Source of the DNA: Patescibacteria group bacterium
GTDB lineage: Bacteria > Patescibacteriota > UBA1384 > XYA2-FULL-43-10 > 1-14-0-10-43-13
NCBI GenBank assembly: GCA_038078835.1
Contig: JBBTQI010000005.1
Coordinates: forward strand, 43,901 to 107,900
Direction: 5' to 3'
DNA: 64,000 bases
The position numbers and the translations under genes are program-made. The notes beneath the pieces are model-generated. The model was not told the DNA's origin and did no database searches. It saw nothing but the letters and a program-made list of their open reading frames with translations. Below, piece by piece: positions 9,443 through 55,602 of the stretch. Within the stretch, counting starts at the first letter, position 1, and each line of letters begins with the position of its first letter.

Positions 9443-10258
9443 TTATTTCTTGGTGCTCTTGATATCCATCTTTATACTCGGACCCATCGAAGTCGTCAGA
9501 AAGAGCGAATCGATTCGGCGCGGCAAATGACCAAGAAGAGCGTCGATGTTCTGTTTGATTCTCTCGGGACCAAAGGAGATTTTGCCGACCGGCATATGAA
9601 CAATATTAAATTTATCTGCCCGGTACTCAACCTTGCCGCCCTTGAGTTCGGAGATGGCCGCCGGAACATCGGCGGCGGCGGTTCCGGCTTTGAGCGAGGG
9701 CATCAACCCCTTTGGACCGAGCGTTTTGGCGACAGCCGCCAACTTGGGCATAACTTTTAAATCAGCCACCAAAAGATCGAAATCAATCTCGCCGCGCTTG
9801 ACTTTGGCGACTAGCTCATCAATATTTTTTTCAGTCGCACCAAAAATCCTCTTCTCTTTGGCCACGCCGCCCGGAAATGTGACTGTGCCGCGGATATTTT
9901 TTTCCTTTTCGTTAACCTTGGCGTGCAGTTCGACTGTGGCATCGAATTTGGCCGGTGAGGTTTGGAGAGCAAGATCGATTGCCTCTGCGACCAGATACTC
10001 TCTCTCCGCCTCAATCCGGCCGGCCAGGGTCCGATAGCGCTTGCCGTGGAGCAACCGCTTGGGCTGTTCGGTTGCCGTTGGTTCTGCCGCCTTCTCCGCC
10101 TTCTCCGCCTTCTCCTCTTTTTCGGCTTTCTTAATTTCTTCCCTCTTAACTTCTTCGGTTTCTTTGCGCTCCCTTTCCCGCTCCTCCGCCTCCTTGAGAA
10201 TCTTCTTTTCGTCGCCAACCTCATCCGGGACAATTTCCTTAACCTTTTTGCGAGCCAT
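9443..10258 (-). CDS. rplA: 50S ribosomal protein L1 with about 70-aa Lys/Glu-rich N-terminal extension
   Basis: L1 core (...GTVTFPGG...KFNIVHMPVGKISF...); 9-nt tandem repeat gccttctcc x3 at 10087..10113 encodes EKAEKAEKA. Confidence 0.9.
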   Translation of the reverse strand: MARKKVKEIVPDEVGDEKKILKEAEERERERKETEEVKREEIKKAEKEEKAEKAEKAAEPTATEQPKRLLHGKRYRTLAGRIEAEREYLVAEAIDLALQTSPAKFDATVELHAKVNEKEKNIRGTVTFPGGVAKEKRIFGATEKNIDELVAKVKRGEIDFDLLVADLKVMPKLAAVAKTLGPKGLMPSLKAGTAAADVPAAISELKGGKVEYRADKFNIVHMPVGKISFGPERIKQNIDALLGHLPRRIDSLFLTTSMGPSIKMDIKSTKK

Positions 10259-11294: not shown

Positions 11295-11975
11295 TTATAT
11301 CGGTTTAATAATTTTTGAAACAGCGAATATGATTATACTTAAACCGAGACTTAAAATCAACAAAATGACAACAGTCGAGAGAACGAGAGCGAGTTGATCG
11401 GGAATGTAGGGGGTGATATCGGGGCGAATGCTGGTGTAACGATAGAGACCATAACCGATCAGGCCAAGTAATCCGACCGTAAAAGCAATGTTCATTAAAT
11501 CCTGGGCGCTCGGATTCATTGTCACTGTAATTGAGAGCAAAAGGTAGACCAGAATTAGCGTCTTCTTGCTCTCCATATCGAGACTGCGGGCTAAATCAAT
11601 GATATGATTAAGTATGCTCTGGTATGAAAAGTTCACAACATCAAACTCAACCTGCCTAAAACCGATAAATTTGGAGAGGACATAGATTGCCGCCACCCCC
11701 ACAACCAGCGGTGCCAGCGAGATAATAATCTGGCCGAAGATCGGGACCTTGGGCCGCTTGTGCTCGACACTGCCGCCCTTAGGATCAAAAAGATTAACGG
11801 CGTGGAGCTTGGCCCCGGTCAGCAGGCAGGCAGTGGTATGAGCCATCTCGTGAAGTATGACGCCGGGCGCGACAAACCAGCGGTAACGGCCGCCCAAAAG
11901 AGAACGCGACAAGAAGAAGTCGATCATTATAGCAATGACCGGTATCGCTCCCAATAATATCGCTATTTCCTTCAT
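11295..11975 (-). CDS. Polytopic membrane zinc-metalloprotease-like protein (HEMAH motif)
   Basis: Track ORF trimmed to MKEIAILL with AGGAGG RBS; HExxH plus multiple TM helices. Confidence 0.55.
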   Translation of the reverse strand: MKEIAILLGAIPVIAIMIDFFLSRSLLGGRYRWFVAPGVILHEMAHTTACLLTGAKLHAVNLFDPKGGSVEHKRPKVPIFGQIIISLAPLVVGVAAIYVLSKFIGFRQVEFDVVNFSYQSILNHIIDLARSLDMESKKTLILVYLLLSITVTMNPSAQDLMNIAFTVGLLGLIGYGLYRYTSIRPDITPYIPDQLALVLSTVVILLILSLGLSIIIFAVSKIIKPI

Positions 11976-12117
11976 CACCCCTCCTAAGCACACAAACTAG
12001 GTAGCCCAAACCCAGCTTACCAAATATTAACCAGGGAGGCAATTTTACTTTAAAGGTGTGTGCAGATAAGCAATGAGGCAATGAGAATGAGTGTGAGGGG
12101 AGAGTGAGGCAAGAGTG

Positions 12118-12853
12118 AGGGGACGGTTCTCTTTTAGATACAGTTTTACACTTTTTAAGTCTTTATCTTCCGATCTATCTTGTCTTGTTCTCTATAACGT
12201 TGAATGTCGCTACCCCAGATGGGTTTCCGATATGATTCCTCGATTATTTGAGCAACGAGCAATCCTTGGTAGTTGGTTTGTCGCTCCGCTTCGTTCTTTC
12301 CCATTGCCTCGTACATGAAATCAGGTGTGATAAGAGGATTTTTCTCACCCATAGAATAAAATCGATAACTGGAGTAAAGATACTCCTCTGGACTTTTTGC
12401 CAGATCGGCTCTGATTGGATTGAGTTCAATATATTTTCCGCACTGGATAAAGTAAGCATCTTTGCCAATAGTTTGGCTTTTAAAACGATCCTGCCAAAAG
12501 TGGCCCACCCAATTATATTTTTGTTGGTAATGGTGAAAATATGCCAAGTTTATTTTTTTCATAAAGACAGAGAACTCGCTGGCATGCTTTGTCTGAATCT
12601 GAAAATGGGTATGCGTTGGCATAAGACAATAATGATAGAGGTCAAAAGGGTGTTCTATCTTGTATTTCGCAAGTAATTCCAAATAGTACAAGTAGTCATC
12701 GGGCGACCTAAAGACAACACTGCGGTTATTGCCTCGCGTCATAATATGATAGTAACTTTGTGACAAGAGAAGCCTTTTTGCCCTGGGCATATAGCAATAA
12801 TACCAAGATTGACAAAAAAGTGTAATTTTGTAATCAAAAGAGAACCGTCCCCT
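12118..12853 (-). mobile_element. REP-associated (RAYT-like) / IS200-like Y1 transposase unit bounded by perfect 18-bp inverted repeats (aggggacggttctctttt / aaaagagaaccgtcccct)
   Basis: 18-bp perfect inverted repeat at 12118..12135 and 12836..12853 flanking the Y1 transposase gene; short repeat clusters outside each inverted repeat. Confidence 0.55.
12155..12790 (-). CDS. IS200/IS605-family Y1 (HuH) tyrosine transposase, RAYT-like
   Basis: Track ORF trimmed to MPRAKRLL; HuH motif LYHYCLMPTHTHF and ...WQDRFKS... catalytic Tyr region. Confidence 0.75.
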   Translation of the reverse strand: MPRAKRLLLSQSYYHIMTRGNNRSVVFRSPDDYLYYLELLAKYKIEHPFDLYHYCLMPTHTHFQIQTKHASEFSVFMKKINLAYFHHYQQKYNWVGHFWQDRFKSQTIGKDAYFIQCGKYIELNPIRADLAKSPEEYLYSSYRFYSMGEKNPLITPDFMYEAMGKNEAERQTNYQGLLVAQIIEESYRKPIWGSDIQRYREQDKIDRKIKT

Positions 12854-12892
12854 TTCCGCAGTCCCCTTTCCGCAAGCGTCCCCTTTCCGCAA
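12847..12892. repeat. Three tandem copies of gtcccctttccgca(a) just outside the right inverted repeat
   Basis: cgtcccctttccgca gtcccctttccgcaa gcgtcccctttccgcaa; gagtgagg-type repeats at the left end (12070-12120). Confidence 0.7.
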
Positions 12893-12951
12893 GCTTCCTG
12901 AGGCAGAATCAGTGATTGCTTTGTAGTTTAAAATTCTAAATTTGTTGAGCT

Positions 12952-13752
12952 TCATAGAATTATAGTTTGCTTTTCATATAATATTGGCAAAGCGTCCTGC
13001 CTCATACGAAATTTTGTGCCGTGGTTATGGCCGGTGCGGGCGTCGAAATCCACAAGAATTTTTCCTTCTTCCAGCGCTTTCAAAAATCCTTCAAAACTGA
13101 ATTTCTGCAACATCATCACTTTTGTGTAATGATAAAATTCTTTTTTCCGAACGATTTTGACTTCGGCTTGAACATAAAAACAGTTCAGCAATTTTGTTCC
13201 CGCTTTGTGTTTCAAGTCATCAAAACCCCAATACGGTTGTGGATTTAATTCACTTAGACCGACCCTCTTTTTGACTAATTTTTTCCAACCGGAATGTTTT
13301 TCAGCTATTTTTTTGCTGTTGAAAGAAATTAAAACCTTCTGCTCCTTTTTGTCTATCTTCACAAAAAACCCTCGGTCGGAAACCGATGAACCACAGATTG
13401 TTTGCCTAAAACTCATTTCTTCAGATTTATATTTTGTCCCGGCTTCTTGGTGCCCCCAGCCATAAAGGGGTAAAAGAATTTTTGGGACAAATCCTACTGC
13501 TCGAGGTGATGGCTCCATATGAAAAAGTGTTGTGAGAGAACAGGTATTTATCCTCTGGGTCTTGAGTTCCCACTCTGCTGCGTTTGGAATTGGTAAATTA
13601 TTTTCCTGTATCCCGAGTAAATCCTCAAGCGTATTACCAATTCCACCGCTATTACCATGTCTCGCATTTGGAATCCAACCCTTTTTAACAATTTCCTTGA
13701 ACTTTTCAATGAGTGATTCTTTGGAAAATAGTACCGGTTTCTTTATCATCAC
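12952..13752 (-). CDS. Type II restriction endonuclease, MvaI/BcnI-like
   Basis: Pattern matches recalled BcnI/MvaI blocks (GNTLEDLLGIQENN...EWELK..., LTTLFHMEP); about 40% GC versus about 50% genome; adjacent MTase. Confidence 0.65.
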   Translation of the reverse strand: MMIKKPVLFSKESLIEKFKEIVKKGWIPNARHGNSGGIGNTLEDLLGIQENNLPIPNAAEWELKTQRINTCSLTTLFHMEPSPRAVGFVPKILLPLYGWGHQEAGTKYKSEEMSFRQTICGSSVSDRGFFVKIDKKEQKVLISFNSKKIAEKHSGWKKLVKKRVGLSELNPQPYWGFDDLKHKAGTKLLNCFYVQAEVKIVRKKEFYHYTKVMMLQKFSFEGFLKALEEGKILVDFDARTGHNHGTKFRMRQDALPILYEKQTIIL

Positions 13753-13757
13753 GCTCC

Positions 13758-14510
13758 TTATATTAGCTTACCCTGAGCAGTATGTTTTTTTATTCTCTCT
13801 TCTGCCATTTTGCAGTACTCTGGCGATACATCTATTCCGATATAGTTCCGATTAAAATTAATCGCAGACAGAGCAGTCGTACCTGAACCCATAAATGGAT
13901 CGAGGACTACATTTGCATTTGTTGAGGAAATTATGCGGTTGATTAGCTTTACAGGAAAAGGTGCGGGGTGGCCATTTTTCATTTCTTGGGTAAATTCCCA
14001 AATATCACCATAAGCATTAGCCTTAGGAGACAGTTTAAATTTGGGCTTAGCAATCAAATAGATAACTTCGTAAGTCGGTAAAAAATATCCGGCGTTGAAG
14101 TTGAGCCCGCCTTTTCTTTTCCAAATGATAATTTGCCTTACAGGAAAGCCGCTAACTATATCTTGACGATCTTGCAAAAGTCCTGCTTGCACCCTCCATT
14201 TATGGTTATAAAAAATGGCTCCATTCTCGGGAATAATACGCATTGCCTCATTCAGAAATTCTCTTTGCCATTGAGCGTATAACTCGTGGGGCATATTGTC
14301 ATCATAATTTGCGTATCCTTTTTGCAAAGCAGCATTTGCCCATTTGCCGCCACGCCCATCTTTCATACCATTACCGGTTGAATTCTTTAAATTATATGGC
14401 GGTGAAGTGATTACCAAGTCAACTACTCCATTAGGAATCTGCTTCATCACTTCAACGACATCACCACAGATTATTTTGTTGATAAAATCATCCGGATATT
14501 TCATTTTCAC
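13758..14510 (-). CDS. Beta-class DNA N4-cytosine/N6-adenine methyltransferase (motif IV DLVITSPPY before motif I DPFMGSGTT)
   Basis: SPPY and FxGxG motifs in beta-class order; cognate MTase of the adjacent REase. Confidence 0.8.
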   Translation of the reverse strand: MKMKYPDDFINKIICGDVVEVMKQIPNGVVDLVITSPPYNLKNSTGNGMKDGRGGKWANAALQKGYANYDDNMPHELYAQWQREFLNEAMRIIPENGAIFYNHKWRVQAGLLQDRQDIVSGFPVRQIIIWKRKGGLNFNAGYFLPTYEVIYLIAKPKFKLSPKANAYGDIWEFTQEMKNGHPAPFPVKLINRIISSTNANVVLDPFMGSGTTALSAINFNRNYIGIDVSPEYCKMAEERIKKHTAQGKLI

Positions 14511-14571
14511 TCTACCCTCACTAAACTGACCTGACCGATACCGAGGCGGCTAAATTAGAAACAGATTAATT

Positions 14572-14627
14572 TGGTGGACTGGGAGGGACTCGGACCCTCT
14601 ACCTCCGCAATGCGCCCCGTACCACAT
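14572..14627 (-). pseudogene. Degenerate partial tRNA copy (D-loop to CCA end, about 56 nt) immediately 3' of tRNA-Ala
   Basis: TGTGGTACGGGGCGCATTGCGGAGGTAGAGGGTCCGAGTCCCTCCCAGTCCACCA aligns to tRNA-Ala from GTGGTACG to AGTCCACCA but lacks the 5' acceptor and D-stem. Confidence 0.5.
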
Positions 14628-14701
14628 TGGTGGACTTAGCGAGAATCGGACTCGCGTCTCCACAATGCGAATGTGGCGTCGTACCACTAGACCATAAGCC
14701 C
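14628..14701 (-). tRNA. tRNA-Ala (anticodon CGC)
   Basis: 74 nt cloverleaf, G3:U70, anticodon loop TTCGCAT, encoded CCA. Confidence 0.8.
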
Positions 14702-14743
14702 AAGTGGGTACGGGGTAAAAATGCAGCGTTCTAAATTTAAATA

Positions 14744-15796
14744 TTAATTACCAGCCCCTAACTTTGCTTGCCACTTGAGCTCGGCTTCGATGAAGGGATC
14801 GATCTCGCCGAGTAAAACCTTATCGGGATCTTTGGATTCATAATTCGTCCGATGGTCCTTAACCAATTTATAGGGATGCAGGACGTAGGAGCGAATCTGA
14901 TTCCCCCACTCCGGCGCCGCAAATTCACCCCGGATCTCCTCGATCTTCTCCCGCCGCTGATCAAGCATCAGTTTGGCCAGACGGGAACGCAAAACCTTGA
15001 GGGCATTCTCCTTATTTTGGAGCTGACTTCGCTCGTTTTGGCAAGTGACAACAATGCCGGTCGGCAGGTGGGTCAGCCGCACCGCCGAATCAGTCGTGTT
15101 AACGGATTGGCCGCCGTGACCGCTGGCCCGAAAGACATCAACCCGCAGATCCTTGGGGTCAATACTTATCTCCCTGTCTGTTTCGATCTCGGGCAAAACC
15201 TCAACCAGCGCGAAGGAGGTTTGACGCAGGGCCTTGGCGTTAAAGGGCGACTGCCGCACCAGGCGATGGACACCGGACTCGCCCTTGAGCTTGCCAAAAA
15301 CGTAAGAGCCGGCAATCTCCAAGGTGGCACTTTTAATACCCGCCTCGCCGCCGCTTGACCGGTCAAGGATTTGGGCCGCCAGATTGTTCTGCTCGGCCCA
15401 GCGCAGATACATCTCAAAAAGCATCTCCGTCCAGTCCTGAGCATCAACGCCACCCGCGCCGGCATAGAAGTTAAGGAGGGCATTGTGATCGTCGTACTTG
15501 CCGCCAAGATAAGTATAAATCTCAAGCTCGGCGATCTCAGCGTGAAGCGCCGCCAGCTCCTCTGGCGAGGCAATTTGGGCAATCTCATAAATATCGTCAA
15601 ACTTTCTGATCTCTTCCCCGAGTTTCTTGAGTTCCTGCGACTTGGCCTGGGCCGTTTTTTCGTCCAACCAAAAATCAGACGATTGCATCTCTGCCTCGAT
15701 CGCCGCAACCATGGATTTCTTTTCATCAATTTTCAAAATGTCTCGCAACTCCTCGAGACGATTTTTGATGTCGGTCATACGATCACATTCTATCAA
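14744..15796 (-). CDS. prfB: Peptide chain release factor 2 (no frameshift site present)
   Basis: GGQ and SPF motifs; single uninterrupted frame (alternative start at 15778). Confidence 0.85.
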   Translation of the reverse strand: MIECDRMTDIKNRLEELRDILKIDEKKSMVAAIEAEMQSSDFWLDEKTAQAKSQELKKLGEEIRKFDDIYEIAQIASPEELAALHAEIAELEIYTYLGGKYDDHNALLNFYAGAGGVDAQDWTEMLFEMYLRWAEQNNLAAQILDRSSGGEAGIKSATLEIAGSYVFGKLKGESGVHRLVRQSPFNAKALRQTSFALVEVLPEIETDREISIDPKDLRVDVFRASGHGGQSVNTTDSAVRLTHLPTGIVVTCQNERSQLQNKENALKVLRSRLAKLMLDQRREKIEEIRGEFAAPEWGNQIRSYVLHPYKLVKDHRTNYESKDPDKVLLGEIDPFIEAELKWQAKLGAGN

Positions 15797-15941: not shown

Positions 15942-18017
15942 CTACATTCCCAGGATGTCGTTGGCGGCGCCGAGAACTTCGAGTTGGCCGCTAATAAGGC
16001 GGCGATACTTGACGTAAGTTCCGGCAATACCGGCCATCATCGTTGCCAGAAAGCTGGCCCCGGCGGCGGCGCCGCTTGGCGGCAAAACGGGTGTCGGCGG
16101 AGCAGGCGGCGCCAACGCGGCCTTAACTTTAGTTTTGGCAATACTGGTCAGCGTGATCTTGTCAAAAGTCAGGGTGACAGTGTTAACCAGGACTTCGTCG
16201 GGGGCTAGAGTGGGAGCAAGAACAGCTCGAAACTTAATGTAGCCCGACTCATCCGGCCCAATCATATCCAGCTTAAAGCCGACACCGGTAATACCGTTGA
16301 TAATGGTCTTCTCCGCGCCGCCGGCAATCGACAAAACGGTTGTGCCCTCAAGGTATTGAACATTTGGCGGCAGAGTGTCGACAAACTTGACGAGATCGGC
16401 AAAAGCATTGCCCCTGTTGCTAAAATCAATCTTATATTCCAGAATATCACCGGGGAAAGCCTCGTTCTCTTTAGCAAAATCACTTTGGCTCGCCGTCACA
16501 TTCCGAACCGTTTTATCCAGCGCCAGCTCAACTTTCTTGGCCGGCCGCACCAGTGTGATCAGAATCTCGTCGCCGTATTTGTTGTAGAGCTTGTCGTCGA
16601 AGCTAAAACCGCGCGCCGGGTTAGCCGGCAGAGGATCCTTAACTTTAACGGTAAATTTCCGCTCGATTGTCGCGCCGGGATCTAACGTCACGGTCGGATA
16701 TTTGACCGCTCCGCCAGCGACCGTACCGCCATCCGAAACAGATACAACATTGGCATATTCCAGAATATCGGCAATATTATCTTCGACTTGATATTCCAGC
16801 GGCGCAACGCCGTTATTTTTGGTAATCAGCGCATATTCAATCTCATCACCGGCCTTGGCCGTTGCCGTAGAGACGTTCCCGTCTCGAGGCGCCGCCTGCT
16901 CACCCGAAGTCAAATTCACAGCCCGTTTGTGCTGTTCAACATTTGCCGCCGCCGGCAAAATCTTAACCTGCGCCGTGTCGGTAAGCGTAATCGCACCGGC
17001 AATCAGCTGGGCCGTATTGGTAACGATCGTCGGGGCGGAGACGTTGGCGACAACTTTGGCTTGAAAGCGAAGAGAGTGGGTCTCGCCGGGATTTAAGGGA
17101 TGCCCCATCGGCCAGCCGCCCCAAAAAAACTGGCCGGCATTCGGATCGTCGGGCAATGGCGTAACCGTTGTGCCGGCAATATGAGCCAGCGTACCGGGAA
17201 CGTATTGAAGTTCCGGCGGCAGAAGATCGCTCAGCAGAATATTATCAACCGGAGCCGAGCCGGGGTTAGTCGCAGCCACATCGAACTCGACAACCTCGCC
17301 AAAGAGGGCGGCAGTGAGCTCGGAGAAATTTGTCTCTGCCTTGACGGGAGCAATATTGCGAACGGTCTTGTTGAGATCGAGATTAATCGCCTGCGGCATC
17401 GCCCTAAACTTAAAGGTGATAAAACCGGCAAAGTCCCAACAGCCATTGATATCACCAATGTTAGCGGAAAAACCATCAAGAGTTGGCGCGACTATAATCG
17501 GCTGGGGATTAGTCGAACCCAAATCGGTTGAATTAGGAAACCAGTTTACGGAGTTAAGATCAAGACCAATATCGGCATTTGCGTTTAGCGCCACCGTCAA
17601 GCCCGGCCGGCCGACAACGGTACCGTCAGGCAGAATTGTATCAGTAACGGTCTCCGCGTTATCGGCCGAAATTGCCGCCTCAAAGAAAGCGACTTTGTTT
17701 GTCGTCTGCTTTGGCGCCGCCACGGTGATAGTGGTGTTGCGGGCCACCGTGCCCTCAATAATATTATGATAATAGATGACACCAAGAAACTCATCGCCGA
17801 CAGTGCCAACTACCGGATCGCGCGGCACAACTTGCGGCGGCACGGCCGAGATGTTGCGGCCAGTAAAGAGCTCGTGATCGCCAACAAGGCCGTTAAAGCG
17901 CGGTGTGTCAGCCCGGCTTGAAAGTGCCGGCCAGACCGCAAGAGAGAGAAGCGACAACAGTACAGAGGCGCCAACAATCTTTTTTAGCTTTGTCGCAAGA
18001 TATTGACCGTAACTCAT
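15942..18017 (-). CDS. Large surface protein with DUF11-type conserved repeat domains, signal peptide and LPXTG-like C-terminal sorting signal (LPPSG + hydrophobic + KYRR)
   Basis: 691 aa; LDKTVRN... repeat starts; C-terminus ...VLPPSGAAAGASFLATMMAGIAGTYVKYRRL... Confidence 0.7.
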   Translation of the reverse strand: MSYGQYLATKLKKIVGASVLLSLLSLAVWPALSSRADTPRFNGLVGDHELFTGRNISAVPPQVVPRDPVVGTVGDEFLGVIYYHNIIEGTVARNTTITVAAPKQTTNKVAFFEAAISADNAETVTDTILPDGTVVGRPGLTVALNANADIGLDLNSVNWFPNSTDLGSTNPQPIIVAPTLDGFSANIGDINGCWDFAGFITFKFRAMPQAINLDLNKTVRNIAPVKAETNFSELTAALFGEVVEFDVAATNPGSAPVDNILLSDLLPPELQYVPGTLAHIAGTTVTPLPDDPNAGQFFWGGWPMGHPLNPGETHSLRFQAKVVANVSAPTIVTNTAQLIAGAITLTDTAQVKILPAAANVEQHKRAVNLTSGEQAAPRDGNVSTATAKAGDEIEYALITKNNGVAPLEYQVEDNIADILEYANVVSVSDGGTVAGGAVKYPTVTLDPGATIERKFTVKVKDPLPANPARGFSFDDKLYNKYGDEILITLVRPAKKVELALDKTVRNVTASQSDFAKENEAFPGDILEYKIDFSNRGNAFADLVKFVDTLPPNVQYLEGTTVLSIAGGAEKTIINGITGVGFKLDMIGPDESGYIKFRAVLAPTLAPDEVLVNTVTLTFDKITLTSIAKTKVKAALAPPAPPTPVLPPSGAAAGASFLATMMAGIAGTYVKYRRLISGQLEVLGAANDILGM

Positions 18018-50541: not shown

Positions 50542-53500
50542 CTATTTTTCCTTCGTCAGCGGAATATTTAAATACCTAAATCCCGGCGGCCAAAATTGGC
50601 TCAGCATATAATCATAAACGAAGCGGACATTGTTTATGCCGGCGATATCAAACTTATTGGCGACAAAAGAACCGCGAAACTCGACGTTGCCGGGATCATC
50701 AACAATGATATCGTCTTGGCAAAAGAGAGATGCTTCAATGGCGTTATTGCCGCCAAAATAACAATCTCCTGCTTCAAGGCTAACTATCATGATCGTGCTA
50801 ACTACAACTGAATCCTCAACCGTGCCGGCGGCGGAATTGCAACGTAAAACAAAACGCGTGTTGGTATTAACGGTTGTTGAATATATCCCGGTCAAATTCG
50901 TCGAAGAAATCAATTGCGCCCGCCAACCTGAATCACCGCTTAGAGGAGTACAGGTTGTAACGGAGGTTAAGTTCCAGGAAATGTTCACTGCCGATCCCCG
51001 CTCCACTGTAATTTGATTATCCTGACCATTAGCCAGGAGGCTCACCGCCGCCGGAGGCGGGGGCGGCAACGTGCTGGTTAACACAAAATCATCAGATGCA
51101 CTATTGTTGGCCTTGTCGACAGCTGCTAGTCTCAGTGTATATCTCCCAGGGCCATCGGTTTGAACTGCCGTGACCGGAGAGTTCGGCTGGCCGAATGACA
51201 CATTCCCCGGCCCCGACACTTTCGACCACGAGTAGCTGGCGATACCAGACCCCGGCGCCGGATCAGTAGCACTCCCCTCTTGGGTAAAAGCACCGCTTAC
51301 GCTTTTATCTGCGCCAGCACTTACCACCGGAGCAACACTATCATAAAAAAGGGTAAGCTGACTGGAGGCAATATTGCCATTTCCTTCGCTATCATTTGCA
51401 GTATTAGCTAAAATATTCACCGAAACATTACCTTGATTTATCGGATATACAAAGAAAGAATATTCTTTGTTGTCGGCGGTTGTCAAACCGGATACCGTTC
51501 CATTAACAACCTGAATATCAGACAACTCAAACCCCGAGACGGCCCGATCAAAAACCGCTGTTACCGGAATCGGAACATCTCTATTGAACTCCCGTGAAAC
51601 AGACAGTGTCACCGAGGGATTGGTCTTTACCGGCACCTCAAAAGTATATTCCAGCAAATTGCCGCTCTCGTCAAAACCGCCGATTCTAAATGTGATAATA
51701 TCATTTGTCGTTAAGCCTACCGGTATTTCAGCCTTATACCCCCCAAGATCTGCCAGCACAAGAGCCATGTCATTAAAATTGGTTCCGTCAGTCGAGTAAG
51801 CGGAATTAACATTGGCAACAGCTTTATACTCACCTAATCCGCCATCGTCCAGCTCGAATTCAAGAGAGTTGCTCTTTTGGGGGTAGTAAAATTCGCTATA
51901 TTTCCCCGCCGTAAAGAAATTAAGCCGAGCTATACTGGGAGGATTCGGATCAGTTTTCCCTGAATCAAATTTGGCATAAACCTTGGCATGAAACTCTTTC
52001 CCGTCGACGTGACTAATCAAAGAATCATGATAGAACTCATAAACTGAACCGGGAATATTAGAAAACTGGGAAAACTCCTCGATGATTTTTGGATAATCAC
52101 CAATCATAAATCCTGACAAATTCTTATTAACAACTTCAGTGCCCTCTTTAACCAACCTAATTTTTGAAGCATCAGAATCAGTAACCGAATAATCCTGACC
52201 AATAAAATAACTACTATCAGCCGGCCAATATGTCCAAACATTTAAACGGTAAAAGTTATCAACAAACATTCCGTTCCAGTGCTTTGGTGTAAAGCCGCTT
52301 TGAAACCTGCCACCAACTAGGGTACGGATGCGACTTTCATCTGCAAAATAATATGAAGTGATTTTGTTACTAGATGGATTAAACTGGTATGAATGCTGAA
52401 CAGGCATACCACGATCTTTCGATAGAATACTATGTTGGCCCACCATATCCTCAAAAGGAAGCGCGTATATTCTTACAGTATTCCAAACCCTGGATGATTT
52501 CCTGGAAATAAAAGCTGTAAACGCACTCCCTCCACCCAGTGGGGCATAAATAACTGACAACACAGAATTTAGTATATCTGTAGGATACTTGCTCTGATAA
52601 TAATCAGTATTTCTAACATCTATTTCCCTTGTAATAAAATCACTCGGTTCATTTTTAATAAGAATATCATCATTAATGCCGTTAAAAGACAGGGAAAATA
52701 AGTGGGCAACTTGTGTCGGCTGAGGTTCTCGAACGCTAACCAATCCAAATGAATAATCAGAACTCATGTCGCTAAAATAAAAATCATTAAAAAAGGAATC
52801 GTTGGGCTCGTTCCAACTCCAAGTCCCGTACAATCTTATCCCCCTTCCATGAGGGCGATAAAATGCCCCCATGGAATAACTGCCCAGATCGTTTATCCTA
52901 TTTCCGTTTATATCTTTGAACTCTTTTTTTACCTTATGATTAGCCGAATTAAAGTCAACCGTAAACTCGATACTTCCATCACCATCATTCTGCTTAAGTG
53001 ATTCATTAAAGATAAAATAGGTAGACGATCCAACAAAGTTAGGGTCATAATGCAACACCGATACCCTTGTTATCACATCATAAGGACCGCTTCCGTCTGT
53101 AAAAATATCGTTATCTCCCTCGGTTACAAATTTTTCAACTATATCATTTGCCCAGTCGTTCTGCTGGTTGCTTCTATCATAAAAAAAGGATTCTGCTCTA
53201 ACAACGAGTTGGTTACTGCTAGCGGGCAGATTGATCATTTTGGCCACAGCTTTAAAGTATTTGGTAAATTTAACGTGAATTTTATAGTCGCCGGCAATCA
53301 TAATACCCTTGTATTGGCCGTTTGCCAGATTCCCGTTGGCAACCGAGATTGCAACCGGAACCTCTCTGGTTTCAGACGGTAAGAGTGTTACAGCGCTCGC
53401 CGCTTCTCCAGTAATCGCTACAGCAGAAGGAAACTGAGAAAGAGAAAAGGGCACTTCTTTGCTAATATCTGTCCTAAAATTTTTTAGAGTAAAATTCCTG

Positions 53501-55602
53501 CTTGAAGTCCACTGCGTCTGCGAGGGGGGATCAATACCATAATCCATCTCCAGAGAGGGCGATATTTCTATGGTAGGCAAGATATGTATTTTAACCGGAA
53601 TGGAATATTTTACCGCTCCGTCAAGCCGAAGCAGTATTGATGCACTATAGTATCCGGCCCGGACAATATCATTATCAACATTTAGAGTAAGTGTAAAACT
53701 GTCAGATGGCGCCAAATTTAAAGTTTCTTTGTTGGCACTCAAAACAACGCCGGCAATATCCGCACTGACAATAAGATCCACCGGATTTGCGGCCTGCCCC
53801 GTCTTGCTAATAGTAAAGGCCTGACTTGAAGCTGAGTATCTGTTTTGTGGGTTGCTGTCAACGCTCCAGTTTGAAGGAGAAGCGCTTAAATCTGATGTCT
53901 TCTGAAGCAACGAAGCAACATTAACCAGGCCGGCACCCTGAGCTTCATACTCCAAGCCCAGACTAATAGCAGAATCCTTTATTCTTTGCTTAATCTGTGC
54001 CGGTGTAAGTGTCGGCTCGGATTGTTTTAACAGCGCCGCCGCGCCGGCAAGGTGAGGTGTCGCCATACTGGTGCCGGAGAGTCTTACGTGAGTATCATTT
54101 AAGCAGGTATCCGCTTCTCCGGCAAAGGCTGTTCCCTGACGAGCGGCACAAATGCTTACTCCGGGCGCTGAAATATCAGGCTTTGGGATATCCTCCCCGT
54201 TATAATTTAGCGGCCCTCGAGAGCTAAATTCAGCGACCGCTTGAATACAGTAGCCATCTCCAATTTGTGACGGCTGGCAAGACGCCGCTACGGTTATGGC
54301 CGTTCTGGCCGTGCCGGGCGACTCTATTGTTGAATCTCTTGGGCCTGAATTTCCGGCAGCGACTACTACCACAACCCCCAAAGCAGAGATTTTATCAACC
54401 GCTTTGCTTGTCAGGTCGTCAGGGTTGCCGCGACCCCCCAAGCTTAAATTAACAACATCGAGACGATCCGAACTGTCGCCATTCTGATCAGGATCCCCCG
54501 ACCGTTCGATTGCCGCAATTACATCAGATATGAGGCCCGACCCATTAGTGTCTAGAACCTTATAGGCGACTACCGAGGCGTCCGGGGCAACGCCATCCAG
54601 CATCCCGCTGCCTGCCGCTATTGCCGCAACATGAGTTCCATGACCATGGTCATCTATCGGATCGTTATCACGTCCGACAAAATCATATCCGCCGATAACC
54701 TTACACCCTTCTCCCAGACAGCCACCTAAATCAGAATGAGAATAATCGACACCCGTGTCTATTATCCCTATTTTAATTCCCCTGCCCCTAATTGGATTGC
54801 TGTTATTATCAATAAAGTTATATACCTCGCCAGCATGGATTTCGGAAACCGAAGTATTAAGTGTCGCTCTCACCTGGCGGTCAAGCCAAACTCTTCTTAT
54901 ATCGGGACTCTGCCTAAGATCATCAACAGCATCTGCATTAATTTCAGCCGAAACAGCATTCGCAATCAACAGATCGTCCTTAATTAATCCGTTCGCTTTT
55001 CTTCTTAGAAAACCGTCCTCAAAAAGCCGTTTTGTTCTTCTTTTGTCTCGCTCCAATTCCTTCTCTATTTCTTTCTTTTCAGACAAGTCAGGCTCTTCGT
55101 AATAAGTTTTTCCTTTTTTTTCGTATTCGATAATCACCGGAACGGTTGTCTTGGGATCTTTTGCAAATCGATTCTCAATTGCCGGCTCGATTTTTTCTTC
55201 GCCCGTCCCGGCATCCTCTTCTAGATCTATAATAGTTGTGTCTGGCCCCTTGGGCACCAAATCGCCCCCGCCAAACAGCTGAGCATCAACATCGCCGGCC
55301 GCCTCGATGGTGTAGGTCGATCCCTCCGGCAGCAATATGTTTTCGCTTTTTTTCTCTCCGGTTTCATGAGGTTGTTTTTTTTGAACAATTGCCGCCTGCC
55401 CCGTCTCAAGATAAGATGAATTATTTGCGTTAGCCAGCGAGATTTTCTCCTTTCGAATCTGCTCCCGGGTTAAAACAAATGGCTCTGTTTTAAAATATCC
55501 TTGTGAATAAAAATAATACGCTGCTCCGACAACAAGAAGCGCAATAATTAGGATGCCAGCAACCAAGCGTTTTTTTTCTTTTACCTGCTTCAACAACCTC
55601 AT
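50542..55602 (-). CDS. Giant (1686 aa) membrane-anchored S8 subtilisin-like serine peptidase with extensive C-terminal beta-rich domains
   Basis: N-terminal TM; catalytic triad blocks IIDTGVDYSHSDL, HGTHVAAIAAG, GTSMATPHLAGAAALL. Confidence 0.85.
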   Translation of the reverse strand: MRLLKQVKEKKRLVAGILIIALLVVGAAYYFYSQGYFKTEPFVLTREQIRKEKISLANANNSSYLETGQAAIVQKKQPHETGEKKSENILLPEGSTYTIEAAGDVDAQLFGGGDLVPKGPDTTIIDLEEDAGTGEEKIEPAIENRFAKDPKTTVPVIIEYEKKGKTYYEEPDLSEKKEIEKELERDKRRTKRLFEDGFLRRKANGLIKDDLLIANAVSAEINADAVDDLRQSPDIRRVWLDRQVRATLNTSVSEIHAGEVYNFIDNNSNPIRGRGIKIGIIDTGVDYSHSDLGGCLGEGCKVIGGYDFVGRDNDPIDDHGHGTHVAAIAAGSGMLDGVAPDASVVAYKVLDTNGSGLISDVIAAIERSGDPDQNGDSSDRLDVVNLSLGGRGNPDDLTSKAVDKISALGVVVVVAAGNSGPRDSTIESPGTARTAITVAASCQPSQIGDGYCIQAVAEFSSRGPLNYNGEDIPKPDISAPGVSICAARQGTAFAGEADTCLNDTHVRLSGTSMATPHLAGAAALLKQSEPTLTPAQIKQRIKDSAISLGLEYEAQGAGLVNVASLLQKTSDLSASPSNWSVDSNPQNRYSASSQAFTISKTGQAANPVDLIVSADIAGVVLSANKETLNLAPSDSFTLTLNVDNDIVRAGYYSASILLRLDGAVKYSIPVKIHILPTIEISPSLEMDYGIDPPSQTQWTSSRNFTLKNFRTDISKEVPFSLSQFPSAVAITGEAASAVTLLPSETREVPVAISVANGNLANGQYKGIMIAGDYKIHVKFTKYFKAVAKMINLPASSNQLVVRAESFFYDRSNQQNDWANDIVEKFVTEGDNDIFTDGSGPYDVITRVSVLHYDPNFVGSSTYFIFNESLKQNDGDGSIEFTVDFNSANHKVKKEFKDINGNRINDLGSYSMGAFYRPHGRGIRLYGTWSWNEPNDSFFNDFYFSDMSSDYSFGLVSVREPQPTQVAHLFSLSFNGINDDILIKNEPSDFITREIDVRNTDYYQSKYPTDILNSVLSVIYAPLGGGSAFTAFISRKSSRVWNTVRIYALPFEDMVGQHSILSKDRGMPVQHSYQFNPSSNKITSYYFADESRIRTLVGGRFQSGFTPKHWNGMFVDNFYRLNVWTYWPADSSYFIGQDYSVTDSDASKIRLVKEGTEVVNKNLSGFMIGDYPKIIEEFSQFSNIPGSVYEFYHDSLISHVDGKEFHAKVYAKFDSGKTDPNPPSIARLNFFTAGKYSEFYYPQKSNSLEFELDDGGLGEYKAVANVNSAYSTDGTNFNDMALVLADLGGYKAEIPVGLTTNDIITFRIGGFDESGNLLEYTFEVPVKTNPSVTLSVSREFNRDVPIPVTAVFDRAVSGFELSDIQVVNGTVSGLTTADNKEYSFFVYPINQGNVSVNILANTANDSEGNGNIASSQLTLFYDSVAPVVSAGADKSVSGAFTQEGSATDPAPGSGIASYSWSKVSGPGNVSFGQPNSPVTAVQTDGPGRYTLRLAAVDKANNSASDDFVLTSTLPPPPPAAVSLLANGQDNQITVERGSAVNISWNLTSVTTCTPLSGDSGWRAQLISSTNLTGIYSTTVNTNTRFVLRCNSAAGTVEDSVVVSTIMIVSLEAGDCYFGGNNAIEASLFCQDDIIVDDPGNVEFRGSFVANKFDIAGINNVRFVYDYMLSQFWPPGFRYLNIPLTKEK

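Follow-up and report, generated by a model that had tools for sequence, protein, structure and literature searches.

Among the characterized members of the MvaI/BcnI family of restriction systems, MvaI cuts CC^WGG and BcnI/NciI cut CC^SGG, and M.MvaI and M.BcnIB are N4-cytosine enzymes. Williams in 2002 reportedly described integrase sublocation classes and tRNA-targeted genomic islands in which 3′ halves of the tRNA are displaced. In archaea and algae, disrupted tRNA genes occur in intron-containing, split and permuted forms, and other RNA genes can reside in tRNA introns. Among relatives of Y1 transposases, REP-RAYT systems are represented by E. coli TnpA-REP (PDB 4ER8) and the Pseudomonas REPINs. 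A variant flanked by terminal inverted repeats (TIRs) has been published as TIRYT/TIRtron (Di Nocera et al. 2013, PMC3733652), with TnpA-Y1 subclass 2.1 (Quentin et al. 2018, PMC6006769) and RAYT group 1 (Bertels et al. 2017, PMC5581495) as further counterparts. In the parts of these papers used here, the proteins are RAYT-like Y1 enzymes with HxH, WQ, an exact YIELNP and an SS tail, and TIRtrons have no REP hairpins, are low in copy number, carry TIRs at a fixed distance from the CDS with the 8-nt consensus GGGGWSAS, and have ends that occasionally occur as dimers or clusters.

Here we compare with these systems a low-GC stretch of ~2.7 kb, bounded by prfB and an M50B-like gene, in a groundwater Patescibacteria genome. 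The window, that is, the whole stretch of DNA analysed, is 64,000 nt long. GC is 0.397 over 11,994–14,570 against 0.506 in the remainder, the lowest value of any 2.6-kb stretch of the window; another low-GC stretch (0.39) lies at 51.2–54 kb. All features listed in an earlier note on this DNA were found where it had placed them, and the locus reads as follows:

11,295–11,975, minus strand: M50B-like membrane peptidase gene, conserved flank (PF13398; synteny with YbaB, Pth and L1 in contigs L086, L087 and L088)
12,089–12,123, no strand assigned: beyond the downstream TIR, degenerate repeats that combine TIR tip and flank (of the CCCCTCAC type when read on the gene strand)
12,118–12,156, no strand assigned: downstream TIR, overlapping the stop codon (inverted-repeat and motif searches)
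12,155–12,790, minus strand: Y1 HUH tyrosine transposase-like gene, 211 aa, assigned to TIRYT/TnpA-Y1 subclass 2.1 (PF01797, E = 7e-15)
12,815–12,853, no strand assigned: upstream TIR, its tip AGGGGACGGTTCTCTTTT 63 nt before the start codon
12,846–12,898, no strand assigned: tandem copies of flank and TIR tip together, lying beyond the upstream TIR (TRF score 78; three exact copies)
12,952–13,752, minus strand: MvaI/BcnI-family Type II restriction endonuclease (PF15515 MvaI_BcnI, E = 2e-67)
13,758–14,510, minus strand: beta-class DNA methyltransferase, probably N4-cytosine, first gene of the cassette (PF01555, E = 3e-42)
14,572–14,614, minus strand: 3′ part of an outer tRNA-Ala-like gene (local alignment to tRNA positions 32–74)
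14,615–14,627, minus strand: trailer strand of the helix, ATGTGGTACGGGG, with its complement in the leader strand that precedes the tRNA
14,628–14,701, minus strand: intact inner tRNA-Ala(CGC) with G3:U70 and encoded CCA (ARAGORN, as the earlier note had read it; Rfam RF00005, 60.4 bits, E = 6e-12)
14,702–14,733, minus strand: 5′ remnant of the outer, older tRNA-Ala-like gene (aligns with the outer 5′ halves of L101, L092 and L098, which are intact)
14,744–15,796, minus strand: prfB (RF2), conserved flank (TIGR00020, 437 bits; adjoins the M50B-like gene in L086)

We suggest that these 2.7 kb are probably a mosaic of three independent modules rather than one integrase-borne island. The first would be a Type II restriction-modification (R-M) cassette, methylase then endonuclease, with activity predicted from homology; the second, a putative TIRtron of 736 bp, in which 39-nt TIRs enclose a gene for a Y1 HUH nuclease; and the third, a tRNA-Ala gene that would have replaced an older one through precise insertion. 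The R-M pair is of an ordinary, horizontally spread kind, and the Y1 gene with its inverted-repeat ends is likewise ordinary and of a known type. The interesting part of the locus is the nested tRNA, an unusual arrangement that recurs in related bacteria and of which we found no description in the literature searched.

At this locus, a complete tRNA-Ala(CGC) with complementary leader and trailer sits in the anticodon loop of an older tRNA-Ala gene. The 5′ remnant of the outer gene retains the 3′ strand of the D stem, the 5′ strand of the anticodon stem (CTGCA) and the loop TTTTTA, after which comes the leader helix strand CCCCGTACCCAC (14,715–14,704); because the prfB stop directly adjoins, the 5′ strands of the outer acceptor stem and D arm are absent. 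L093 contains a 19-nt string of this remnant, TGCATTTTTACCCCGTACC, without change. On the other side, the 3′ part consists of the anticodon CGC, AT, the anticodon-stem 3′ strand TGCGG, the variable region AGGTA, an intact T arm (GAGGG/CCCTC), the acceptor 3′ strand CCAGTCC and ACCA. The segment 14,572–14,627 had been taken for a degenerate tRNA fragment, and its derivation from a tRNA is sound: a 44-nt local alignment from anticodon to CCA scores 30, which none of 2000 shuffles reaches (best, 26). Leader and trailer form a 16-nt inverted repeat (81%). In the precursor RNA, this helix would stack on the old anticodon stem to give one long stem. The window's outer gene, surviving as two pieces, is clearly dead.

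The same architecture is seen in nine further contigs, in which Ala-type tRNA halves (G3:U70) lie outside a 12–13-bp helix around tRNA-Ala(CGC); the helix is retained there with a different sequence (CCCCGTTAGACAT/ATGTCTAACGGGG). Outer 3′ halves homologous to that of the window are present in L092, L095, L098, L101, L108, L113 and L120. The outer structure is paired in 95% of cells, and sliding the partners lowers this to 32–52%. In nine pairs both sides vary, a count equalled in 1 of 500 shuffles, and the folding energy of the L098 unit is −78.5 kcal/mol (z = −4.7). Nesting also affects tRNA-Pro(CGG) in L104 and L122 and tRNA-Thr(UGU) in L012, where the loop is cleanly split, TTTG|TAA, with no duplication. 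Nested examples total only about 13. From one tRNA type to another, the junction helices have different sequences and therefore are not a recombinase site.

The earlier note had read the tRNA fragment as a sign of integrase-type insertion or decay at the tRNA 3′ end. In such a reading, a single island carrying the restriction genes and a REP-RAYT-REP unit entered the 3′ end of tRNA-Ala and left the fragment as an att scar, and GC is indeed low throughout the stretch, the fragment begins at the anticodon, a classic location of integrase crossover, and all modules are missing from L086, where prfB and the M50B-like gene are separated by a 130-nt spacer. The foreign character that the note ascribed to the stretch is thus supported by its composition and by L086. 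We nevertheless regard the single island as very unlikely. No integrase is seen among the called genes from prfB to the M50B-like gene, the far border holds no second copy of the tRNA end (best scores of 15–19, which equal background), and we found no evidence for the fragment as an integration scar. As in tRNA-targeted islands, a tRNA piece starting in the anticodon loop adjoins an intact tRNA near foreign DNA; here, however, the fragment separates the tRNA from the island instead of lying on the island's far side, a matching 5′ remnant lies on the opposite side, upstream of the tRNA, and the two pieces flank the tRNA alone, with the restriction genes outside the pair. The L012 junction, free of duplication, is a further difference. 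Moreover, nests recur in other genomes without restriction or Y1 genes: the Patescibacteria contigs with nests of Ala(CGC), Pro(CGG) or Thr(UGU) have no restriction genes nearby, relatives of the Y1 gene also occur without them, and the Y1 unit and the restriction cassette are separate in other genomes. The fragment is part of a nest that recurs apart from restriction genes. The att-scar and REP components of the single-island model are contradicted by this recurrence and by repeats that are neither hairpins nor dispersed in the 64 kb. It is possible that the L086 lineage lost the modules, because this sole relative with long synteny is a distant one (its flanking protein is 53% identical), and it is also possible that a single transfer brought the tRNA and the restriction genes together.

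A different question is whether the outer halves still function, the inner tRNA and helix being an intron-like insert released by RNase P/RNase Z and the halves being joined or acting as a split tRNA, as in some archaea. Direct reading of the L092, L098 and L101 sequences gives 7/7 pairs in the outer acceptor stem; the D arm, anticodon stem and T arm pair too, with compensatory differences between contigs; and one G-U pair in the helix fits pairing at the RNA level. The likeness to the disrupted tRNAs of archaea and algae includes the interruption of the anticodon loop (in L104 and L122 at 37/38, the canonical intron site), a long helix joining the halves and an RNA gene inside the interruption. 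Against this, the nests are bacterial and offer no bulge-helix-bulge motif, the inserted gene repeats the same tRNA in full, and the usually dead-looking outer copy is in many cases broken or palindrome-filled (the window, L012, L104, L122 and L095). In addition, the putative anticodon varies by contig (UUC/UCC/UUU or CAA/CGG/CGC, depending on the choice of junction), ARAGORN in intron mode calls none, and the outer acceptor identity is alanine, the same as that of the inner gene, so that functional halves would add no decoding capacity. We judge functional halves improbable; the outer copies could be neutral wreckage.

Turning to the first module, an MvaI/BcnI-like pair with an SPPY beta-class methylase had been proposed, and Pfam profiles and solved relatives agree. 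The endonuclease matches PF15515 over the entire profile (positions 1–227 of 227) and R.MvaI (2oa9) over its full length (E = 4e-18), while R.BcnI is matched at the N-terminus only (E = 1e-7). The adjoining methylase has SPPY towards its N-terminus and FMGSGTT towards its C-terminus, the beta-class order. Its best solved relatives are annotated “DNA cytosine-N4 methyltransferase” (8s9n/8s9m, E = 1e-37; CcrM, 1e-17), and on this basis it most likely makes N4-methylcytosine, so the predicted m4C modification is probable. The match to characterized MvaI and BcnI is weak, and therefore a central-base preference, CCWGG or CCSGG, is not readable from it; neither site is depleted in the window (ratios of 1.0 and 0.96, respectively). 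One source labels a 77% relative of the endonuclease “nciI,” an automatic, unverified name.

The endonuclease has 6837 relatives, the top ones, 74–82% identical, coming from many classes of Patescibacteria (Niyogi-, Sung-, Moran-, Gracili-, Peregrini- and Daviesbacteria) and from an Aenigmatarchaeote; for comparison, the best relative of the neighbouring M50B-like protein is merely 63% identical. Methylase and endonuclease are found as a pair in three unrelated contexts, with flanks that show no similarity, and cassette GC is below flank GC in 4/4 genomes examined. Ten IMG/VR contigs encode endonuclease relatives at 49–79% identity. These homology patterns indicate horizontal transfer of the R-M pair, as two genes and nothing else, between Patescibacteria, DPANN archaea and predicted viruses.

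For the Y1 gene, publicly annotated as “transposase,” the protein carries HTH (HuH), FWQ, YIELNP and SS motifs and has 856 relatives at E ≤ 0.001. Because of YIELNP, WQ and SS, together with the TIR motif GGGGACGG set against the published GGGGWSAS, which its tip fits at 7/8 positions, we assign it to subclass 2.1/TIRYT; by sequence, it fits the TIRYT/TIRtron kind (TnpA-Y1 subclass 2.1, RAYT group 1) and shares the traits given above for these systems. Some features differ. The window protein has 211 aa, assuming the start MPRAKR as in 13/13 aligned relatives, against a subclass median of 238, and Pfam detects no C-terminal domain of DnaA-C/HTH type. Its host belongs to Patescibacteria, which are named neither in the summary of Quentin et al. 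(epsilon-, beta- and deltaproteobacteria; PMC6006769) nor in the group description of Bertels et al. (PMC5581495), as far as these sections go. A public 266-aa call of the gene runs through the TIR and the tandem repeats.

The 18-nt inverted repeat (12,118–12,135 and 12,836–12,853) is perfect and extends to 39 nt with 85% complementarity. No further copy was found in the 64 kb with up to three mismatches (0.04 expected), nor did we see an identical second copy of the Y1 unit. A scan of species representatives, from which 80 loci were kept and among which the window's own genome is absent, yielded proteins 38–72% identical to the window's Y1 in Patescibacteria, Elusimicrobia, Omnitrophota, Nitrospirota, Deltaproteobacteria and Planctomycetes. 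The end motif AGGGGACGGTTCT is nearly invariant across several phyla (76 of ~79 related loci): the core GGGGACGGTTC, with at most one mismatch, is present upstream in 76/79 loci, about 53–63 nt from the start codon (median 61.5 nt), and inverted downstream in 76 of the 77 where the contig allows. The conserved end, AGGGGACGGTTCTCTTT, is 13–17 nt long and exceeds the published consensus of 8 nt both in length and, by far, in uniformity across phyla.

The note was right in placing the protein nearer RAYT than IS200: the NCBIfam RAYT model scores best, and TnpA-REP (4er8) is the best solved relative (E = 1e-3). Inverted repeats around a single-copy Y1 gene are a further likeness to REP-RAYT. The proposed REP-RAYT-REP arrangement itself did not hold, since the RAYT score is under the family cut-off (65.4 versus 80) and the repeats are not palindromic hairpins with a GTAG or CGTC tag (no hairpin folding, z between +0.4 and −1.4), form no dispersed population in the 64 kb and end in a motif common across phyla rather than species-specific; the published TIR-flanked variant, TIRYT/TIRtron, fits instead. 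An ordinary IS200/IS605-type insertion sequence, which the Pfam Y1_Tnp match and the public name would suggest, has hardly any likelihood and was rejected, the tested family features contradicting it: the NCBIfam IS200 model gives 16.7 bits where its cut-off is 55, YIELNP stands in place of the tyrosine motif Y---Q, there is no tnpB and there are no subterminal hairpins, and long TIRs are carried instead, in line with the note's view that the unit is not classical IS200. Unlikely, though a stronger rival, is a domesticated, vertically inherited host gene that no longer moves, the inverted motifs being operator/regulatory or host-useful processing sites. High protein conservation (60–72% across Patescibacteria), a mostly single copy per contig, a motif at a fixed ~53–63 nt from the start codon, like a promoter-linked site, and the general resemblance of RAYTs to housekeeping genes, as discussed in the consulted part of PMC5581495, all favour it. 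The gene is, however, missing at the corresponding site of L086, its neighbours differ in every locus examined, its GC is below that of the flanks in 60/65 loci, several genomes hold 2–3 diverged copies, and the same part of PMC5581495 credits RAYT group 1 with the most duplicates and with plasmid copies. Moreover, exact cores more than 400 nt from the gene number 18 in 1.06 Mb, against 0.5 expected, some as facing, gene-less end pairs and others as solo ends kilobases away.

Outside both TIRs lie tandem repeats. Upstream, GTCCCCTTTCCGCA occurs three times at 12,847–12,891, reading TGCGGAA-AGGGGAC(G), three times, on the gene strand; downstream, the repeat at 12,089–12,123 has a TRF period of 11, with 3.2 copies and 79% matches. 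These outer repeats are reiterations of the flank plus the first 6–8 nt of the end, and the pattern is family-wide: flank-plus-tip tandem architecture is seen in 19/76 upstream and 12/76 downstream flanks of relatives (control, 1/152), and 23 of 39 extra tip copies end after 6–8 nt and then pass into flank repeats. The consulted parts of Di Nocera et al. (2013), Quentin et al. (2018) and Bertels et al. (2017) hold no description of such copies. Replication slippage could give tandem repeats similar to those that we ascribe to a break point in the TIR. In the TIRtron model that we favour, the Y1 enzyme would recognize the tip AGGGGACGGTTCT and, judging from the repeat footprints, break and rejoin one DNA strand 6–8 nt inside it (GGGGAC/G/G), which would leave flank-plus-tip copies on both sides here and in about one-quarter of relatives, and occasional end pairs without a gene.

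The genome containing the window is a metagenome-assembled genome (Patescibacteria/CPR) from Hainich groundwater, and the same neighborhood, with a Y1 protein 100% identical, is present in ENA contig Hain_H43_01um_R2_139 and in other samples. The minus strand carries all genes of the low-GC region and its borders, which are laid out as follows:

14744-15796, minus strand: prfB
14702-14733, minus strand: 5' remnant of an outer tRNA gene
14628-14701, minus strand: tRNA-Ala(CGC)
14572-14627, minus strand: tRNA-like piece
14572-14614, minus strand: 3' piece of the outer tRNA gene
13758-14510, minus strand: methyltransferase gene
12952-13752, minus strand: endonuclease gene
12155-12790, minus strand: Y1 transposase-like gene
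11295-11975, minus strand: M50B-like peptidase gene

Every feature that the earlier note had listed here from sequence inspection (tRNA, tRNA fragment, restriction-modification genes, Y1 gene, repeats and low GC) was found in the window. GC content is 0.397 in the island stretch versus 0.506 elsewhere, the lowest value of any 2.6-kb stretch of the window. A second low-GC stretch (0.39, ~51250-54000) lies within a subtilase gene, a 1686-aa ORF (50542-55602, minus strand) with S8 subtilase, Ig-like and PKD-like domains. On the other side of the M50B-like gene, rplA (9443-10258) encodes an L1 protein with a Lys/Glu-rich N-terminal extension of ~60 aa, part of it specified by 3.7 tandem copies of the 9-nt unit TTCTCCGCC (10082-10115).

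The tRNA-like piece is indeed tRNA-derived, as had been proposed: it aligns to tRNA positions 32-74, from the anticodon to the CCA end, with a score that 0 of 2000 shuffles reached. Its T stem differs from that of the tRNA on both strands and still pairs. The intact tRNA gene lies inside the anticodon loop of an older, outer tRNA gene, together with a leader/trailer helix whose two strands (CCCCGTACCCAC and GTGGTACGGGG) are complementary and unlike in sequence those of other alanine loci of this kind; we refer to such an arrangement as a nest. The outer gene has lost its acceptor 5' strand and the 5' strand of its D arm, with the prfB stop codon abutting, and it is dead. The tRNA was the only Rfam family found at E<=10 over 11900-14800, weak matches to HPnc0260, tmRNA_permuted and Plastid-ycf2 being set aside as noise from tRNA-like sequence.

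Nests recur in other genomes. A metagenome scan with the tRNA core returned 31 contigs, and in 9 of these tRNA-Ala(CGC) is bracketed by a 12- to 13-nt inverted repeat (CCCCGTTAGACAT … ATGTCTAACGGGG). This repeat is in turn flanked by a second tRNA, present as two halves and bearing alanine identity (G3:U70, A73). With RNAalifold the outer acceptor stem, D arm, anticodon stem, helix and outer T arm are all recovered. In the outer structure 95% of cells pair, versus 32-52% with slid partners, and nine outer pairs change on both sides, which was matched by 1 of 500 shuffles; one nest unit folds at z = -4.7. Throughout 1.5 Mb of fetched DNA the Ala helix motif was found only beside tRNA-Ala(CGC), and this confinement led us to reject the helix as the end of a dispersed miniature transposon. 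Two or three layers are present at four of the comparator loci (L093, L095, L098 and L120). The same architecture surrounds other tRNAs in three comparators:

L104, 2806-2877, minus strand: tRNA-Pro(CGG) nest, helix GGAAATTTTTA, split after position 37
L122, 756-827: tRNA-Pro(CGG) nest, helix GTTAAGGACC, split after position 37
L012 (Saccharibacteria), 15980-16054: tRNA-Thr(UGU) nest, helix CCTGCCCGCC, split between positions 35 and 36

In these three nests the outer copy is of the same tRNA as the inner one, and the helix sequence is particular to each. The outer 5' half in L104 is nearly identical to the inner tRNA-Pro(CGG) and ends after G37, and the anticodon loop in L012 is split as TTTG|TAA, with zero duplication or loss. 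We found no description of such nests, or of intron-borne tRNAs, in Patescibacteria in the literature searched.

We tentatively suggest, with confidence just short of even, that Patescibacteria tRNA genes are renewed by the precise, duplication-free insertion of a whole tRNA gene, with its complementary leader and trailer, into the anticodon loop of a resident one, and that the fragment in the window is a decayed outer layer. Such an insertion would give an onion-like locus, in which two helix strands enclose the intact tRNA and the 5' and 3' halves lie outside them, at times in two or three layers; it may use a mechanism at the level of RNA or of single-stranded DNA, and the old anticodon stem and the helix may be re-used as a precursor stem. 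Both the origin by precise insertion and the re-use of the stem are what we infer. Disruption and replacement of tRNA genes in this manner would be of a type for which we found no account in bacteria.

The clean L012 junction argues against target-duplicating transposases and against recombinases with an overlap region; a crossover by a tyrosine or serine recombinase in particular was judged unlikely, the two L012 junctions having no common overlap sequence. GTTAGAC/GTCTAAC resembles an integron attC site in fitting GTTRRRY/RYYYAAC, but this reading was rejected by inspection, since its strands have the wrong polarity and the window-type, Pro and Thr nests lack the motif. An intron or split tRNA of the archaeal type would explain two halves that can pair around an insert; the junction, drawn as 5 bp, a 1x1 mismatch, 3 bp, a 2x1 loop and 13 bp, contains no bulge-helix-bulge. 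ARAGORN with introns allowed made zero calls of outer tRNAs, and the putative outer anticodon varies from contig to contig. When the halves were spliced by brute force and the threshold lowered, many calls were non-specific, and the exercise served solely as confirmation that pairing between the halves is possible. Nested loci are a recurrent way for tRNA genes to be disrupted and replaced among bacteria whose genomes are tiny; if nesting is active, it bears on the origin of fragmented tRNA genes, so far studied in archaea and algae.

Two further features were observed around these tRNA genes. Complementary leaders and trailers of 12-13 nt flank tRNA-Pro(CGG) at one comparator locus (L099, 943-1015) and tRNA-Ala(CGC) at another (L107, 940-1012) without outer halves, so that the leader-trailer helix may be general in some Patescibacteria tRNA genes, apart from nesting. 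The palindrome CCTGCCTGCCGGCAGGCAGG is inserted in tRNA pieces that are dead, on two contigs unrelated to each other: in the variable region of the outer 3' half of L101 and in the D loop of the outer 5' half of L122, and a related insert of ~32 nt (CCGCG.CC.TCC..AGCTT.AGCGA.GGA.GG) breaks up the T loop of the outer 3' halves of L095/L118 and L108. Small palindromic insertions look as if they gather in tRNA wreckage.

The earlier note had taken the fragment as a sign of integrase-type insertion at the tRNA, a reading that found no support. No integrase was seen among the ORFs of 11295-15796, and no direct repeats bounding the island were found. A search for a copy of the tRNA 3' end or of the fragment inside 11900-14560, far border included, gave best scores of 15-19, equal to background. 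Near the other nests there are no endonuclease or Y1 genes, and the only hits were two weak ones to the methylase, of which one lies 5 kb off; we therefore found nothing tying the fragment in the window to the island as an integration scar. In these genomes, tRNA fragments beside foreign DNA are not automatically scars of integration. The locus without the modules is seen in a long comparator contig (L086, flanking protein 53% identical), which keeps the order of CLIPPER-domain genes, prfB, M50B-like, YbaB, Pth, L1, L10, L12 and TGT and has only 130 nt, without a tRNA, from prfB to the M50B-like gene. The nest, the restriction-modification cassette and the Y1 unit are accordingly lineage-specific additions, or else losses in the other lineage. 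Each of these three modules occurs elsewhere without the others, and we read the region as a mosaic accumulated at a single intergenic site that is permissive. One transfer that brought the tRNA and the restriction genes together is conceivable, and we regard it as the less probable history.

The family assignment of the restriction genes in the earlier note is supported. The endonuclease matches PF15515 (MvaI_BcnI) end to end (profile positions 1-227 of 227; 228 bits, cut-off 25; E=2e-67) and gives a full-length alignment with R.MvaI (E=4e-18) and one with R.BcnI at the N-terminus only. The methylase belongs to PF01555, with SPPY ahead of FMGSGTT, the beta-class order. Among solved structures, two entries deposited under the name of DNA cytosine-N4 methyltransferase are its best relatives (E=1e-37), with adenine enzymes far behind. 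The two genes have the same orientation and are separated by a 5-nt gap. They constitute a predicted Type II restriction-modification system of the MvaI/BcnI family, which probably modifies a CCNGG-type site as m4C. Neither CCWGG nor CCSGG is depleted in the window, where both occur at expectation, so that site avoidance is uninformative on specificity, and W and S are both candidates for the central base. The most depleted palindromic-type pentamer of the whole window is GCWGC (83 observed versus 137 expected, ratio 0.61), which may reflect a further restriction system, whether of the genome or of its phages.

The distribution of the cassette is patchy and independent of context. Endonuclease relatives 74-82% identical come from many Patescibacteria classes and from one Aenigmatarchaeote, and the best relative of the neighboring M50B-like protein is only 63% identical. 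The methylase-endonuclease pair was found in three unrelated neighborhoods, with no flank similarity between cassettes of different genomes; its GC content is below that of the flanks in 4 of 4 genomes examined, and ten predicted viral contigs (IMG/VR) encode relatives of its proteins. Horizontal spread is well supported by these sequence comparisons. Cassettes that move horizontally in this way are very common, and the pair is one further example; the flagged items, this pair and the Y1 unit alike, are routine. A homologous pair in another comparator (L089, 2694-10473) sits between tRNA-Ser and tRNA-Arg, in the company of a large serine recombinase, a gene of the GmrSD type and an HTH gene, a more classical defense island.

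The Y1 gene encodes 211 aa from an MPRAKR start, and all 13 relatives in our alignment begin at or near the MPR position. The public call of 266 aa uses an ATG that overlaps the endonuclease stop and takes both the inverted and the tandem repeats as coding sequence (window 12791-12955). In the alignment the HuH histidines H60 and H62 are invariant (T-H-T-H in the window, N-H-T-H in most relatives), as are FWQ and YIELNP, and a 70-aa C-terminal tail with an SS motif is conserved, the SS tail being present in the window protein. At E<=0.001 the protein has 856 relatives; the closest have ~210 aa and 60-72% identity, and most of these are from Patescibacteria. Among solved proteins the best relative is E. 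coli TnpA-REP. There is one copy within the 64-kb window, and several other genomes have 2-3 copies, 51-64% identical to the query. Of 65 loci, 60 have a gene whose GC content falls below that of the flanks. IMG/VR holds only relatives 26-29% identical, and a viral origin of the clade was rejected on this basis.

A RAYT-like protein had been proposed, and the NCBIfam models agree in their ranking: the RAYT model NF047646 scores 65.4 bits (cut-off 80) versus 16.7 (cut-off 55) for the IS200 model NF033573, both below cut-off, placing the predicted protein nearer to RAYT than to IS200. Membership in IS200/IS605 was rejected on the sub-cut-off score, YIELNP in place of Y---Q, the absence of hairpins and the absence of a second ORF inside the repeats. 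RAYT proper was rejected as well, since NF047646 stays below cut-off, the end repeats are not hairpins and no GTAG tag is present in the sequence. A published group lies closer. Di Nocera et al. (PMC3733652) describe RAYT-like genes flanked by terminal inverted repeats (TIRs), not REPs, named TIRYT or TIRtron, whose TIRs have GGGGWSAS in common at a similar distance from the gene. Quentin et al. (PMC6006769) place 20 of 26 TIRYTs in TnpA-Y1 subclass 2.1, equal to Bertels group 1, with the motifs NH[VYF]H, W[EQ], YIELNP and an SS tail and no REPs (Table 1); the tyrosine motif is listed as YIELNP / Y[IV]HLNP, and sub-group 2.1.2 is said to have heterogeneous tails. The window protein likewise has YIELNP, WQ and SS, and its TIR tip, GGGGACGG, fits GGGGWSAS at 7 of 8 positions. 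It differs in that the C-terminal HTH similarity of the subclass was not detected by Pfam, no HTH family of the Bac_DnaA_C, HTH_23 or HTH_28 type matching the tail even at E<=10. On these motifs we assign the Y1 unit to the TIRYT kind, which extends TIR-flanked RAYT relatives into Patescibacteria, a group unnamed in the taxonomic summaries of Quentin 2018 (PMC6006769) and Bertels 2017 (PMC5581495).

The perfect 18-nt inverted repeat around the gene, noted previously, extends to 39 nt at 85%. It occurs at its two positions only in 64 kb (0.04 expected), and the search for further copies that had been recommended found none there. A REP-RAYT-REP arrangement, the reading favored before, predicts hairpins and dispersed repeats; folded as single-stranded DNA on both strands, the two ends do no better than shuffles (z +0.40, -0.59, -1.40 and -1.30), and we abandoned it. 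The first relative examined (L004, 71% identity, other neighborhood) has its gene flanked by the identical 18-mer, inverted. From a scan of species-representative genomes that gave at least 526 loci, 80 were kept and analyzed with L004 and the window. In 76 of 79 loci the core GGGGACGGTTC (<=1 mismatch) precedes the start, at a median distance of 61.5 nt, and in 76 of 77 its inverse lies downstream of the gene. It is shared across Patescibacteria, Elusimicrobia, Omnitrophota, Nitrospirota, Deltaproteobacteria and Planctomycetes, even in loci whose protein is as little as 38% identical, and the consensus of the element end is A-GGGGACGGTTCT-(C)TTT.

The threefold tandem repeat described before is also confirmed: GTCCCCTTTCCGCA is found three times in the window, borne in the repeat outside the upstream end. 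Each repeat joins flank sequence to the initial 6-7 nt of the TIR (TGCGGAA-AGGGGAC(G) on the gene strand), the third copy continuing into the full TIR. Such flank-plus-tip repeats are a family trait. Extra tips in the same orientation are present in 19 of 76 upstream and 12 of 76 downstream flanks, versus 1 of 152 for the opposite-orientation control, and 23 of 39 extra tips end after exactly 6, 7 or 8 nt, whereupon the preceding flank is repeated. Cleavage by the Y1 protein may fall 6-8 nt inside the tip, where an HUH enzyme would break and rejoin the strand at GGGGAC/G/G; an excised circle would show the junction …CCGTCCCCT|AGGGGACGG…. A 13- to 17-nt end motif that stays nearly constant even as protein identity between phyla falls to 40%, together with footprints that indicate the break site, offers a concrete and cheap biochemical test for this Y1 subclass. 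Our literature search on the end motif returned nothing relevant, and no such substrate definition was met in the portions of the literature searched.

For genome-wide copy counts, AGGGGACGGTTCT can be used as the end string of the element. More than 400 nt from the gene, exact cores number 18 in 1.06 Mb (0.5 expected), or about one extra per 60 kb across relatives, which fits occasional mobilization of the element and agrees with the modest repeat numbers reported for RAYT group 1 (PMC5581495). Some of these distant cores form gene-less facing pairs that resemble miniature derivatives of the element. Pairs of this kind, 25-125 nt apart, were seen at L004 (5760-5816) and at four other comparator loci (L058, L016, L045 and L068); that of L058 lies ~5.4 kb upstream of the gene and that of L016 ~7.3 kb downstream.
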